DNA from: a virus
Virus record (IMG/VR): IMGVR_UViG_3300045988_116799
Coordinates: 1-64,000 of that record
Length of the DNA: 64,000 bases
Reading direction: 5' to 3' (one strand)
Positions 17,216 through 22,672 of the stretch are shown here, in pieces (position 1 is the stretch's first letter; every line of letters starts with the position of its first letter). The translations under genes and the position numbers were made by a program. The notes beneath the pieces were generated by a model that worked only from the letters and a program-made list of their open reading frames with translations, searched no databases and was not told the origin of the DNA.

Positions 17216-17803
17216 TTAAACACTCATTTCCAGCATCTTTGGATAGCCTGCGGTATAATCATACCCAAGTACCTCCTCAACCGTGCTCATTTCCGCTACC
17301 GCCTTCTTGTGCGCAGCCGTAACGTTGAAGCACTCAAGGGCATACATCTCCAGTGCCGAGAGCAGCTGTATCGCCTTGTCGCACTCCACCACCAGCTTCA
17401 CATCGCCCAGCCACAGCGTCGTTGTAGCCTGTCCCATGGCCTTCGCAATGGTCGTCGAGTTCATCAGTCCTACACGCGTAGCCTTGTCGAGCCACACACG
17501 CTGTCCGTTGAGGATAAAGCCGTTGACGGCAGAAGACGTGTCATGCTTCTCAATCTCCGCAAGCACCATCTTCTGTGCGGCAGCAGTAAGAGCTGCCTCC
17601 GAAGTCATGCCGCCAGTCTCCAGGCGCACACCGTCATACACCCACACCTTGCGTTCCACCACAGCCCACATGTCTTTCAAGTCAGAACTAAAAGTTTCCG
17701 GACGTTCTATTTGCGTCTTCTCCTGACCGTTGATAAGCAGCAACACAACACCATCGCCAACAGTCAATCGTGGCTGTGCCTCGCTAAAATAATATTTCTC
17801 CAT
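17216..17803 (-). CDS. hypothetical protein, possibly a tail-fibre-associated (DUF4376-like) domain
   Basis: ATG at 17803 (the listed start is TTG at 17809). The pattern INGQ..WLDKATRVGL...LWLGD...AIQLLSALEMYALECFNVTAAHK...YDYTAGYP resembles DUF4376 from memory. Confidence 0.55.
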   Translation of the reverse strand: MEKYYFSEAQPRLTVGDGVVLLLINGQEKTQIERPETFSSDLKDMWAVVERKVWVYDGVRLETGGMTSEAALTAAAQKMVLAEIEKHDTSSAVNGFILNGQRVWLDKATRVGLMNSTTIAKAMGQATTTLWLGDVKLVVECDKAIQLLSALEMYALECFNVTAAHKKAVAEMSTVEEVLGYDYTAGYPKMLEMSV

Positions 17804-17813
17804 AATCAAAATA

Positions 17814-17836: not shown

Positions 17837-19222
17837 TCAGCATTCGATATACTCCATCTGATTAGTCGAGCCTTCAAAGATATATCCGCACTCGTCCACA
17901 ATCCTCACGTCCTCCAACGGCAGCAAGGTCTTCTTGCCATATTCCTTCTCTGCTTCCACCATCCACGCCACGATACCCATCATGCCACCATGCACCTCTC
18001 TGGCTATTGTCTTGCCCGTCAGCTCACCATCAGCAGTCACCTCCGGCATACCGATAAGCATCTTTATCCAATTAGGTTCGCCCGTTTTCTCGCTCTTGCG
18101 TATCTCGTAGTCGAAGACAGTGAACGCCTGTCCGCTACGTGCCAACTCCAGTGGCTTTATATTCGGAGCGTCCATCTTGCGGTCTATGCGTATCTTCTTT
18201 GTCAGTTCTCGTAGCTTCATATCTTTCTCAATTTTCACCATCTCTCCGAATCCGTCAGTATGACGCATCAGTCCGAAGTAGCTGCCCCACGAATTATCGT
18301 TATTGCACATTCTCGCTCTCAATAGCGTGTCTTTGCGTATAAGGCAATAGCCCTTGTTCGAGTCCGTCACGCTCTTGTCGTTGTTGCGTATCACCCTATA
18401 ACCGCAGAAGTCAATCCCTCGCTTGTCGTTGATGTCGGTAATCCTTGTATCGCCACGCTTCGCCCTCATCTTCAGCTCATACCACCAGTACTGCCTTATC
18501 CTCCACTTCATCCGTTGCGCTTCCTCCCTTGTTCGGCAAGCCACCATGCAATTATCTGCATAGCACAATCGCCATTCAGTGTTTCGGCACAGCCACTCAT
18601 GGAATCTCAGCATCAGTATATGGTGAGCAAGCGGACTCGTCGGTGTGCCTACAGGCAGTTGCCCGTCAACAAAGCACAACTCCACGGCAAAGTCTATCAG
18701 CCACTTGTCACCAATAAGGTATTTCAGCTCCTTGCGCAGCACGCTCGGCTTCACGTGCATATAGCATTTTCGTTGATCGGCAGTCACTACCCAGTCCATT
18801 TCGCGCAGATCGTAAAACAGGTGCTTCACTCTTGGAAGAACATAGTTGCTTTTCAGCTCCTTGTGCTTTGCCGACGGAGTAATACCGCACCCTTCCTTGC
18901 AGTTAAGCGACACCAACGGGTCGCGTCTGCGGTATATCGGCTCCAACTTGTTCTTCAGCAGATGTTCATACACTAAAGTTCTGAACGTAGGCGCGTCGAT
19001 ATGCCTCACCTTCTTGTTGTTGTTCACCTTGGTCAGCTTCCAGTACTTGATGTCCTCATGCCAGCTTCCATCTTTGAGATGTTGTTCAATACTTGCGCAT
19101 AGCCCTTTTACATCCTTCAATGCCTCCGCCACCTCTGGGCGTTTCTTTCTGCCCTTAGCGGCACTCTCCACTGCTCTGAGGTAGTCGTCAGCAACGAAGG
19201 GTATGTAGTTGGGTCTATGCAC
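17837..19222 (-). CDS. DGR reverse transcriptase (divergent)
   Basis: RT motifs: AAKGRKKRPEV (N-terminus), VVTADQRKCY (motif A Asp), QLPVGTPTSPLAHHIL (motif B), CYADNCMV (motif C), GIDFCGYRV (motif E). GTG start. Lies 220 nt downstream of the TR. Confidence 0.9.
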   Translation of the reverse strand: MHRPNYIPFVADDYLRAVESAAKGRKKRPEVAEALKDVKGLCASIEQHLKDGSWHEDIKYWKLTKVNNNKKVRHIDAPTFRTLVYEHLLKNKLEPIYRRRDPLVSLNCKEGCGITPSAKHKELKSNYVLPRVKHLFYDLREMDWVVTADQRKCYMHVKPSVLRKELKYLIGDKWLIDFAVELCFVDGQLPVGTPTSPLAHHILMLRFHEWLCRNTEWRLCYADNCMVACRTREEAQRMKWRIRQYWWYELKMRAKRGDTRITDINDKRGIDFCGYRVIRNNDKSVTDSNKGYCLIRKDTLLRARMCNNDNSWGSYFGLMRHTDGFGEMVKIEKDMKLRELTKKIRIDRKMDAPNIKPLELARSGQAFTVFDYEIRKSEKTGEPNWIKMLIGMPEVTADGELTGKTIAREVHGGMMGIVAWMVEAEKEYGKKTLLPLEDVRIVDECGYIFEGSTNQMEYIEC

Positions 19223-19447
19223 GTTAATAATATGTTTTGTGCGGATTGCTCCGTTGTTAATAATCAGTGTCGGGCTAAAAAGTTGACGGAACTGTCTGCC
19301 CGTCAGAATGTCTCTCGGTCACGTTCGCCGCATCACGTACAGCCATCGTGCTACGCTCACATCCCTTGTCTTTGATATTTTCTGCTTCTCCTGAGCGAGA
19401 GTGGTGTTCCCGTGTTATTGGTTCTGCATCATTTATGATGCCCGACG

Positions 19448-19556
19448 TTGGGCAGAACCGCCATTATTCACGTTCGTATTAGCAGCCGAGTTGTTCGCAT
19501 TCAGATACCGAGGCGAACAATTCGCATTATTCGCATTGCCACGAAAGCGCACGGCT
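19448..19556 (-). repeat. DGR template repeat (TR)
   Basis: Aligns without gaps to 19814..19922 (offset 366). Every mismatch is a T on the + strand, which is an A in the coding sense. Confidence 0.9.
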
Positions 19557-19760: not shown

Positions 19761-19800
19761 TGCACAACGTTGCACTAAGTTGCACCCGGCTGCGCCTATT
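19751..19800. repeat. five phased 10-nt units starting TGCAC (x4) and TGCGC
   Basis: TGCACCGCGC, TGCACAACGT, TGCACTAAGT, TGCACCCGGC, TGCGCCTATT, with an exact 10-nt period, running up to the target stop codon at 19796-19798. Confidence 0.8.
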
Positions 19801-22672
19801 GCACGATGCGACACTGGGCAGAACCGCCATAAAACACGTGCGGAATAGCAGCCGAGTGGTTCGCATTCAGAAACCGAGGCGAACAATACGCATGACTCGC
19901 ATCGCCACGAAAGCGCACGGCTATGCGCACGCGCTGGTTGAGAGTAGAACTCCAGTACGGAAATGCCCACGAGTAGAAGCATTGCCAACTGCTAAGATTT
20001 CCTCCATCGGCAATCTTGTATGGGATATACCCAAGTCTATTCTTACAGTAACCGTCCGACAAGATAGGAGAACCGAAAGTACCAATCTTACCATACGTAG
20101 ACTCGAAGCCGAATGTGCCAAGATTGTTCTTGCTGACACCAGACTCATTCACCCACTTTGACTGGTTGGGTTCAAGATAGAAATCTATGTAGTTCTTTAA
20201 CAGCTGCTCGGCATTGTAGCTGCCGTTGGTCTGCACCTTGTTAGTGCCCACCATCTCACAGCCGCCTCCCCAATAAGCAAAGACATCACCACTGACGTTC
20301 ATGCCGTGCATGAGACTCATTCTAAGACTTAGCTCAAGGTCGTATGTAGCAAGCGTGTTAGCGTCTTTGTAGCCCTTACAAGTGCCAATCTTCTTGCGAT
20401 ACACCTTACAGTTCATCACTCCGTCAGCCAAGCCCTTTACGCCCGTTATGTTCTTATAGCGGTACGTTACGCCATACGCCTCATACTCGGTGTTCTCAGC
20501 AATTCCGAACTCTGCTGCCCACGATGCTGCCATCTGGCTCTCCATGCACTGCTCCTTTGAACGATATAAATTCACGAACCACGAAAAGTTATTCTTTTCC
20601 AACTTTTCGTTATGTCCAAATGGTGTGCTATCGCCAAATCCGCGATATGTCCATTCTTCCGTACCCTGTTCCTTGCATCGCACACCGCCATTGTCGAGCC
20701 ATGTATTCTCCGAGTTGCAAGCGTCATTGCTTGATATGCCCGAACCAAACAAATTATTGTCGTGCAAGTACTTTGTTCCATACAGCAGCTCCATACACAG
20801 TATAAAGGTGTTGACACCATGAAAACCTCCTTCGGCAAAGGGCAGTGGCGCATTGGTGTCAGCATTGTTGGCACGAGCCTTTTGCATGTTGCTCACCTGA
20901 GTCATATCCGATATACGAGGATATGTTCTACCATCGTTTACGTACATCGAACACATATTCTCGCCTGCTCCGCTCGGTCCGTTGGTGGTGTTTGTGTCAC
21001 CCACGGCATAGACGTAGAAGAAGTTGCGTGTCTTGTTGCCTACCGTAGTAACAGGACAAGGAGACAGAGCCGTTCCAAGCAGAGGGTATCTGCCAGTATC
21101 AATGCCATCATAGCGCACCTGACGCTTGAAGATGCCCGTCAACACCTTACCGCTATCGCCAGTCTGACGGTCTACTGGATATAGGGTGTCGTAGCGACCG
21201 ATCATCACCGAATACTTTGTCTCTGTGGTCTCCCAAGGCAACAGCTGACGCACCTTGTTACCCTCTCCGTCGTACAAGTCTACCAAACCAAGCGAGTTGT
21301 ACACCTCTGTTGCATCGTAAGGATGTGCGCCAGCCTTATCTGTCACAACAACACCATTTTTCAGCGTCAATGGAGTTGTGTGCTCGGCATCGGTATAGAG
21401 TTGTACATCACACGCAGCACGCATCGCCTCCGTAATACCCACGGTAGGCGCAAACGCACCCGACACAAAGCGGAAGTGATTATTGTCCATCAACTGACCT
21501 ACAGGGTGTGTAGCCTCGCCAGTGTTGTCGGTTTGGTCGATAAGGTACGGATGCCAATCGCCCAAGAACTCCTTGTTTCCCTTGCAGTTCTTGAAGTGAG
21601 GGTCGCCCGTCACCTCGTCGTTCTCGCCTACATAGTAATCCTTAACGTTCTCCTTCAGTTCGGCAATGTCAGCAGCGTTCTGTGCCACAGCCTCCTTAGT
21701 CTCCTTCATGTCCACTACAAGCTGATTCACCTTCTCGCCCTCACCGACTTTCACACTCTTGCTTTCACCCTCGCGATTGGTAACAGTCAGCAATCCGTCG
21801 TCGGCAAGAGTGGCATTGACGTTCTCGGCTGCTCTCACCGCATCCACTGTCGAGGCCGCACCCTTGTTGGCAGCATCAGCAGCAGCGTTGGCAGTGTCAG
21901 CAGCCGACTGTGCAGACATCACAGCCTGCTGGCTGGCATCAGCACGCTCCTGCTCAGCCGATACTCGCAGCTTCTCGTTAGCCATACGTCGCGCCTCCGC
22001 TTCCGCTCTCAGCTTCTCGTCGTTGCCTCGTGTGTTCTCAGCCTCCGTGCGGTTCGTCTCGTTGCTCGCACGCTGCGTCTCAGCCTCCGTGCGCTGAGTT
22101 TCAGCCTCTGCACGCTCATGCTCAGCCTTCACGCGCTCCTGCTCATTAGCTGTTGCCGTATTGTTAATAGCCACAGCCTTATCCACCTCCGCCTTAGCCT
22201 TACGCAGCGTGTCGGTAAGCTGTAGGTTGAGAGCTTCGCCCTGCTCAGCAGCCTCCTGCGCACGACTCGCCTGAGCCTGTGCCGATGCCGATGCCGAAGT
22301 CGCAGCCGTAGCCGCTGCATCCACCTTGTCCAAAGCAGCCTGTAGCCCAGCCGTAGCTGTAGTCACGCTCTCCGCAGCCTTAGCCGCTTCCGCTGCCTTG
22401 TCGTTAGCAGTTTTAGCAGCAGCGTTGGCAGCCGTAGCAGCCTCCTGCGCACTCTGAGCACCGTCGTGAGCGCTCTTAGCGTCCACGAGCAGGCTCCACC
22501 ACTCGTCCTCACCCACAGGCTCGTGCCCGATGTTGCCGTCCGCCTTGCTCAGATAGGTGTTGCCGCCGTGCGTCACAAGCTGTAGCTTACAGTAAGTCAC
22601 ACTCGCGTCGTATGCCCCTTTAGGGTGCATGCCGACACTACCCATGTCAATGTACTTCTTTTCCATATTCAC
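19796..22672 (-). CDS. tail fibre / receptor-binding protein, DGR target
   Basis: 958 aa; Ala/Glu-rich coiled coil with AEAETQRTEAETQR repeats; large C-terminal globular part ending in the VR (…RFRGDASHAYCSPRFLNANHSAAIPHVFYGGSAQCRIVQ). Confidence 0.85.
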   Translation of the reverse strand: MNMEKKYIDMGSVGMHPKGAYDASVTYCKLQLVTHGGNTYLSKADGNIGHEPVGEDEWWSLLVDAKSAHDGAQSAQEAATAANAAAKTANDKAAEAAKAAESVTTATAGLQAALDKVDAAATAATSASASAQAQASRAQEAAEQGEALNLQLTDTLRKAKAEVDKAVAINNTATANEQERVKAEHERAEAETQRTEAETQRASNETNRTEAENTRGNDEKLRAEAEARRMANEKLRVSAEQERADASQQAVMSAQSAADTANAAADAANKGAASTVDAVRAAENVNATLADDGLLTVTNREGESKSVKVGEGEKVNQLVVDMKETKEAVAQNAADIAELKENVKDYYVGENDEVTGDPHFKNCKGNKEFLGDWHPYLIDQTDNTGEATHPVGQLMDNNHFRFVSGAFAPTVGITEAMRAACDVQLYTDAEHTTPLTLKNGVVVTDKAGAHPYDATEVYNSLGLVDLYDGEGNKVRQLLPWETTETKYSVMIGRYDTLYPVDRQTGDSGKVLTGIFKRQVRYDGIDTGRYPLLGTALSPCPVTTVGNKTRNFFYVYAVGDTNTTNGPSGAGENMCSMYVNDGRTYPRISDMTQVSNMQKARANNADTNAPLPFAEGGFHGVNTFILCMELLYGTKYLHDNNLFGSGISSNDACNSENTWLDNGGVRCKEQGTEEWTYRGFGDSTPFGHNEKLEKNNFSWFVNLYRSKEQCMESQMAASWAAEFGIAENTEYEAYGVTYRYKNITGVKGLADGVMNCKVYRKKIGTCKGYKDANTLATYDLELSLRMSLMHGMNVSGDVFAYWGGGCEMVGTNKVQTNGSYNAEQLLKNYIDFYLEPNQSKWVNESGVSKNNLGTFGFESTYGKIGTFGSPILSDGYCKNRLGYIPYKIADGGNLSSWQCFYSWAFPYWSSTLNQRVRIAVRFRGDASHAYCSPRFLNANHSAAIPHVFYGGSAQCRIVQ
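19814..19922 (-). repeat. DGR variable repeat (VR)
   Basis: Encodes the last ~36 residues of the 958-aa protein and differs from the TR only at TR adenines. Confidence 0.9.

Follow-up and report, generated by a model that had tools for sequence, protein, structure and literature searches.

A long reverse transcriptase with a YADN motif C in the Avd-less diversity-generating retroelement of a phage

The 64,000-nucleotide stretch of DNA analysed here (positions 1 to 64,000 of the IMG/VR virus record IMGVR_UViG_3300045988_116799, hereafter the window) belongs to the genome of a gut phage, which is complete at 77.5 kb and has direct terminal repeats. The open reading frame (ORF) at 17837..19222, on the minus strand, encodes the reverse transcriptase (RT) of a diversity-generating retroelement (DGR). 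This protein of 461 amino acids (aa) is the only RT encoded in the complete genome. Its gene starts with GTG (19220-19222), a start codon which is kept in 15 of 15 close relatives and aligns with ATG in relatives that are 66% identical; this is consistent with a deliberately low expression of the RT.

The other parts of the cassette, and all the features of the RT gene located below, lie on the same strand. The template repeat (TR, 19443..19556) has 114 nt, of which 27 are adenines. The variable repeat (VR, 19809..19922) is the 3′ end of the target gene (19796..22672), which encodes a putative tail-fibre or receptor-binding protein of 958 aa whose PHROG matches are limited to families of unknown function. 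The TR and the VR of the window differ by 13 A-to-N mismatches and one other. A spacer RNA region of 220 nt (19223..19442), with an AAGAC core and a covarying pairing, lies between the TR and the RT gene. The order target, TR, RT is common to the cassettes of the relatives. The accessory protein Avd, a four-helix bundle (PF05635), has no match across the complete 77.5-kb genome, the interval between the VR and the RT gene contains no ORF of Avd size, and avd is neither annotated nor called in the relatives.

In motif A of the RT, the catalytic aspartate D149 (codon 18776..18778) is invariant in 67 family members; from its position in the motif, it would be the equivalent of D138 in bRT, the Bordetella BPP-1 enzyme. 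Motif B (18632..18652) reads V191-G-T-P-T-S-P197, in the context L189-P-V-G-T-P-T-S-P197 followed by LAHHIL, and G192, P194 and S196 are invariant in the same 67 sequences, as is R73, the equivalent of R74 in bRT. Motif C (18551..18562) reads Y221-A-D-N224, within CYADNCMV. D223 is conserved in at least 90% of the sequences, and family members have either D or N at residue 224; in the window its codon is AAT (18551..18553), a single transition away from GAT. The thumb-proximal motif GIDFCGYRV corresponds to residues 269-277. The remainder of the palm and the thumb (18221..18391), with helices at residues 297-304, 309-319 and 325-334, were delimited from the secondary structure of an AlphaFold (AF2) model and from a comparison of lengths with canonical DGR RTs.

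A first-pass annotation, made from the sequence alone, had singled out three departures from the signatures of the family: YADN instead of YxDD, TSP instead of SQ, and a C-terminal extension of about 130 residues. Both motifs read as it had reported. The departures are real, since the canonical enzymes are nearly all of the other type and shorter: among the 120 canonical DGR RTs sampled, which are the best profile matches, YxDD is present in 120/120, SQ in 117/120, and the median length is 348 aa.

The protein is a DGR RT in spite of these departures. RVT_1 is the only Pfam family that matches it (37.5 bits for a cut-off of 29.6), and PHROGs assigns it to an RT family. The score with the group II intron RT model TIGR04416 (54.9 bits) is below the cut-off of 300, and the first residue of motif B is V, not Q; the score with the retron model NF038233 (18.9 bits) is below the cut-off of 235. 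The name "retron-type" given in GenBank to the homologue from phage csAssE-Sib is generic. The AF2 model (confidence score pLDDT of 87.5) matches bRT (8ub7_A) in Foldseek with a template-modelling score (TMt) of 0.74, a root-mean-square deviation (rmsd) of 3.7 Å and 20% identity; the palm, the fingers, the thumb and the N-terminal extension of the two proteins fold alike. Among the Foldseek matches, bRT has the lowest rmsd and the highest identity, and the best-ranked match is the group II intron RT GsI-IIC (PDB 6ar1, E 8e-15). When 1.84 billion cluster representatives were scanned exhaustively with HMMER, only 235 matches were returned at E≤0.001; beyond the family of long RTs described below, they are canonical IGxxxSQ DGR RTs of 330–360 aa, with 23–30% identity. 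The window RT has the RT fold with motifs 1-7 and its nearest relatives in sequence and in structure are DGR RTs. The placement follows from these matches outside the family and from the fold match with bRT, even if the YxDD box of DGR RTs is replaced by YADN.

A search of 5.8 billion proteins returned 381 homologues, nearly all of 440–470 aa, with a query coverage of 96–100%. As judged from sequence comparison, the RT belongs to a compact family of long (~440–470 aa) DGR RTs from phages devoid of Avd. The phages that carry them appear to infect Bacteroidales. With megablast, the cassette had no match among GenBank phages, and in a tblastn search of GenBank phages only csAssE-Sib (OR575929.1) was found to hold a member of the family. 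The RT of csAssE-Sib (WOZ57271.1) is 46% identical to the window RT over 99% of its length, has GTPTSP and the C-terminal domain, and is encoded in a cassette with an annotated target-VR-TR-RT layout without avd. It differs by its YADD motif (as found at locus L048 and similar loci) and by the size of the phage, 151 kb compared to 77.5 kb; moreover, the RT of this type is often broken in related metagenomic genomes.

The unusual motif B is not a peculiarity of this gene. GTPTSP, then HH, is present in essentially every member of the long-RT family, and it is a family trait and not a lesion. DGR RTs have the signature [I/V/L]GxxxSQ, compared to QGxxxSP in other RTs (PMC7826257). The whole DGR signature is absent here, but its hydrophobic first residue is kept (V191); the whole family has P in the place of Q. 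In bRT, I181 and the fingertip residue R74 promote adenine misincorporation, and the Q187P substitution leaves the frequency of adenine misincorporation unchanged (PMC7826257). Since V191 and the invariant R73 are kept, and Q187P does not alter this misincorporation in bRT, the part of the signature relevant to mutagenesis is intact. The window RT and bRT have in common this hydrophobic residue and the fingertip arginine. The SP end of motif B is shared with group II intron RTs such as GsI-IIC (QGxxxSP), which also have a domain C-terminal to the thumb; the window RT differs from them in having V and not Q in motif B, and in having no intron RNA.

The YADN motif, on the contrary, is limited to part of the family. 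Asparagine occupies the second position of motif C in 26 of 143 sampled sequences of the long-RT family, the other 117 having aspartate, and in none of the 120 canonical DGR RTs. The window RT is in a clade (support 99/95) where all the sequences have Asn, with 57–93% identity to the window RT; Asp is present in the sequence sister to this clade. A tree obtained with a mixture model has five D/N changes, at least four of which are forced by supported branches, and none of the 200 bootstrap trees has a single origin of Asn. This comparison shows that YADN arose or reverted at least four to five times in the family. No description of a YADN variant of the RT was found in the searched literature. 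Besides, Asn91 (in HLLKNKLEPIY, after motif 2) is present in 7 of 8 YxDN lineages and in 15% of the YxDD sequences. This co-variation with N224 is confounded by one large YADD clade, and it is not claimed here.

The RT genes of the YADN clade were read as DNA (n = 18, 66–100% identical). All 18 are intact, with AAC as the codon for Asn224 in 14 of them and AAT in four. The ratio of non-synonymous to synonymous substitutions (dN/dS) is 0.05–0.13, with a synonymous divergence (dS) of up to ~1.5–2, and the polymerase and C-terminal parts are alike in this respect. Comparison of the genes shows YADN to be maintained by selection in its clade. The first-pass annotation had proposed to check whether N224 is fixed in related genomes: the residue is fixed and under purifying selection in the clade, and Asn occurs in at least four lineages.

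The TR/VR pairs bear on whether the element works. An adenine-specific pattern is present in every YADN cassette examined (more than 20 related cassettes). The 15 close relatives have 8–21 A-mismatches each, and most of them have only one or two other mismatches; the higher non-A counts in two of them (L017 and L020) arise because the alignments overran the repeat. The same pattern is seen in the 66%-identical loci L001-L005 and in the independent YADN lineages L089/L090 and L094. When the YADN loci are pooled, 51% of the TR adenines and 0.4% of the other bases are changed, compared to 48% and 2.3% for the pooled YADD relatives, with a T>C>G spectrum for both sets. An adenine density of ~50% has been reported for the DGRs of Bordetella and Bacteroides. 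The window cassette resembles that of BPP-1 in its adjoining TR/VR pair and in the A-specific mutagenesis with a density of ~50%.

Comparisons of near-identical contigs from different samples provide the strongest evidence of activity. The contigs L001 and L002, which encode the same RT protein, have 12 differences over 6.2 kb, all of them in the VR and 11 at TR adenines. Similarly, L089 and L090, from an independent YADN lineage, have 14 differences in 11.4 kb; 12 of these fall in the VR, each at a TR adenine. The window and three relatives (L009, L010 and L011) have an identical TR, and each of the four has a VR of its own. In the clade as a whole, 24 of the 27 adenine sites are variable in the VR and only two of 27 in the TR. 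Near-identical contigs that differ at VR adenines bear the signature of recent mutagenic retrohoming, and by these contig comparisons the process appears to be ongoing.

These observations bear on the two readings that the first-pass annotation had left side by side, a functional divergent lineage or an element frozen by the D-to-N change. According to the latter, the substitution killed the polymerase, and the TR/VR mismatches of this relic are older than the mutation. This idea has some ground: the second Asp of YxDD is regarded as catalytic in retroviral RTs, where the HIV-1 D186N variant serves as a dead control, and YxDD is universal in the sampled canonical DGR RTs. But YADN persists through dS values above 1 under purifying selection, with no broken gene among the 18; genomes which encode the same RT and are otherwise near-identical differ almost only at VR adenine sites; a single TR is accompanied by four VRs in four genomes; and decay is visible elsewhere, in the YADD-type RT genes of csAssE-like phages. 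The frozen relic is refuted because near-identical YADN genomes differ almost only at VR adenine sites, and we regard it as extremely improbable. The functional divergent lineage, on the other hand, is supported by the selection across the clade, the recurrence of Asn and the fresh A-specific changes in the VR.

In csAssE-Sib-like phages (~75–150 kb; L095-L099), the way in which the YADD-type RT is broken changes from one sample to the next: there is a frameshift near the linker (L095), TGA in place of invariant Trp codons (L096 and L099), a 45-aa deletion (L098) and internal frameshifts. L099 has YADN together with a nonsense codon. A recoding of TGA as Trp in L096 and L099 was considered, and it is unlikely: the long genes nearby can be read through with table 11. 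On many csAssE-like contigs, a C-terminal ORF of 123 aa continues to be called on its own, as a "hypothetical protein". Since these YADD relatives show frameshifts, nonsense codons and deletions, decay of the RT is detectable where it is present.

The RNA between the TR and the RT gene is conserved as well. The spacers compared are those of the window (19223-19446, minus strand) and of five relatives (L001, L003, L004, L013 and L020). A small stem precedes the AAGAC core, which is invariant in the TR-to-RT spacers of both YADN and YADD relatives. In the YADN clade, GTCGGGC (19440-19446), at the 3′ boundary of the TR, pairs with GCCCGAC (19269-19275), which lies about 170 nt further downstream, and compensatory changes maintain the pairing in L003 (GCCGAGC/GCTCGGC) and L020 (GCCGGGC/GCCCGGC). 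By analogy, this pairing may be the counterpart of the priming duplex formed in BPP-1 between the TR and the spacer (TR:Sp). The conserved spacer RNA would presumably prime the synthesis of cDNA in cis. A small hairpin, CATCAT-AA-ATGATG, directly follows the TR.

Could the cDNA be made by another enzyme? The YADN protein might not polymerise at all and be kept for another role, such as RNA binding or targeting, with the cDNA provided in trans by an RT from the host or from a co-infecting element. Purifying selection alone does not identify the activity that is selected, and gut Bacteroides commonly carry their own DGRs. However, the YADN lineages show little or no change in D149, D223, R73, V/I191 and the other polymerase motifs, DGR RTs need cognate RNA elements around the TR and the spacer is lineage-specific here, and the mutational footprint is the same as in the YADD relatives. 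A trans-acting RT is unlikely because the phage genome encodes a single RT and the polymerase motifs are conserved; the scenario of a non-polymerising YADN protein is, in our estimate, very improbable.

How a YADN enzyme might work can be proposed by comparison with bRT. In the cryo-electron microscopy (cryo-EM) structure of bRT, the modelled Mg2+ is 2.2 and 2.3 Å from D138 and D215; D216 is listed as catalytic and is not named as a ligand. In the window RT, catalysis would be carried by D149 in motif A and D223, the first Asp of motif C, as suggested by the alignment of the motifs. Asn would be tolerated at the second position of motif C, possibly at the cost of some efficiency, a cost that a DGR could afford. 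DGR RTs are intrinsically very inefficient, and this inefficiency is tied to adenine mutagenesis (PMC7826257); since these enzymes are already inefficient, a further loss may be affordable. Adenine mutagenesis would be kept via V191 and R73 (I181 and R74 in bRT), the replacement of the terminal Q by P being neutral.

Taken together, the data make it probable, with good confidence, that the protein is the working RT of a complete, Avd-less phage DGR, in a compact family of long DGR RTs. A few points weigh against this conclusion. The roles of D149 and D223 come from the alignment of motifs and not from a solved structure. The evidence for activity is a comparison of consensus sequences of contigs. 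The canonical DGR RTs sampled were the best 120 profile matches, so that consensus-like enzymes are over-represented among them. A supply of cDNA in trans, unlikely as it is, would also account for the footprint. Lastly, activity here runs counter to the use of HIV-1 RT D186N as a catalytically inactive control. The two enzymes are alike in having Asn where palm motif C would otherwise have its second acidic residue; they differ in that the Asn of the window RT occurs naturally, is under selection and does not seem to prevent activity. Mononegavirus L polymerases, which are RNA-dependent RNA polymerases, carry a GDN motif C.

The third departure is the C-terminal extension. The window RT has 177 residues after alignment position 285, compared to 52–84 in canonical DGR RTs, and the excess of ~100–125 aa begins at M335; about 127 residues lie beyond the thumb. 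The first-pass annotation was right about the existence of this extension, although it is a family-wide trait and not a peculiarity of this gene. It had also considered that the region could be an ordinary long thumb, which is not borne out by the AF2 model: the thumb is of normal size, with three helices, and ends near residue 334. Two parts can be distinguished beyond it. Residues 335-352 (MKLRELTKKIRIDRKMDA; 18167..18220) form a basic linker with an isoelectric point (pI) of 10.4, predicted to be disordered (pLDDT <50 at residues 337-349). Residues 353-461 (17840..18166) form a family-specific α/β domain, which is acidic (pI 4.7); in the model, residues ~353-453 comprise a long helix and three long strands, which are antiparallel, as well as other strands that are short. 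As modelled, the C-terminal region is a separate, family-specific module rather than an ordinary long thumb. The linker contains many invariant residues (M335, L337, L340, T341, R348, D351 and A352) despite its predicted disorder, which suggests that it may become ordered on a partner, possibly RNA.

The domain is strongly conserved, with a dN/dS of 0.02–0.06. It has no match in Pfam and no sequence match in the PDB; the best Foldseek hit against the PDB has an E of 0.15, which is not significant, and all its hits in BFVD are to other RTs of phages. Standalone C-terminal proteins of 120–160 aa were considered as support for a fused accessory protein (Rosetta-stone argument). This was rejected: they are by-products of broken csAssE-like RT genes.

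The survey of Wu et al. (2018, PMC5758913) provides a context for these features. Unexplained C-terminal extensions were noted there in about 20% of DGR RTs, 29% of the DGRs are without accessory genes, and one lineage linked to Bacteroides is without avd. The window cassette resembles, by description, Architecture A of Lineage 3 in that survey: the order is target, TR, RT without an accessory gene, an extension of ~100–150 aa in which no motif is recognised follows the thumb, and there is an association with Bacteroides and its relatives. Neither a YxDN active site nor a characterisation of the extension is reported in the survey. Its acidic accessory protein CH1 has a pI similar to that of the C-terminal domain of the window RT, and the two might conceivably be homologous.

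The comparison with BPP-1 brings together the absence of Avd and the presence of the extension. bRT is a protein of 328 aa with YMDD and IGxxxSQ, which requires pentameric Avd and has no extra domains, whereas the window RT is a protein of 461 aa with YADN and VGxxxSP, encoded in a genome without Avd, and has the linker and the C-terminal domain. In the cryo-EM structure of bRT, Avd positions the template-primer duplex via the N-terminal extension of the RT, ~40 Å from the active site. We tentatively propose, as a speculation, that the basic linker and the acidic domain might replace Avd by holding the DGR RNA and the template-primer duplex. The domain has no fold match that would support this proposal and, with a pI of 4.7, it is acidic, whereas Avd is basic. 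The region may instead have a role unlike that of Avd, as a module for DNA targeting or integration (compare the D/En domains of group II intron RTs), or as a domain for oligomerisation or for docking a host factor. Group II intron RTs, which are structural neighbours, do have C-terminal DNA-binding domains, and an acidic domain fits protein-protein contacts better than the binding of nucleic acids, only the linker being basic. However, the domain does not match the D/En domains and has no likeness in fold or sequence to a DNA-binding, endonuclease or other known domain, so that a role of this kind, although possible, is on the unlikely side. The most far-reaching version of the proposal, in which the second carboxylate of motif C is dispensable, Asn is an adaptive tuning of metal use or of catalytic efficiency in a mutagenic polymerase, and the linker and domain make it a self-sufficient, Avd-free RT, is doubtful when taken as a whole.

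The region downstream of the RT gene differs between the window and its relatives. In the relatives, a small protein of ~130–150 aa with the motif AINAAEMEAYNL is conserved directly downstream of the RT (L001:7394-7840, L003:7377-7793, L004:7380-7790, L089:6397-6777 and L092:1512-2285). The window has instead, at 17216-17809 (minus strand), a gene for a tail-fibre-like protein of ~197 aa (phrog_1807). In L092, the small protein is fused to a domain that shares homology with the C-terminal region of this 197-aa protein. The small protein could belong to the phage tail or be a DGR accessory protein. The existence of a conserved accessory gene downstream of the RT was considered, without a convincing outcome: the 197-aa protein of the window aligns poorly with the small protein of the relatives.

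The YxDD box is regarded as nearly inviolable in RTs, and a natural lineage that has Asn at the last position under purifying selection, a normal mutational footprint and several origins is informative in this respect. This lineage is a ready system for studying the role of the second aspartate, and it bears on the link between low catalytic efficiency and adenine mutagenesis. An Avd-less RT with a conserved extra domain built into it is also a candidate for a minimal DGR, made of the RT and its RNA, which would be useful for the study of Avd-independent retrohoming and for tools of targeted diversification.

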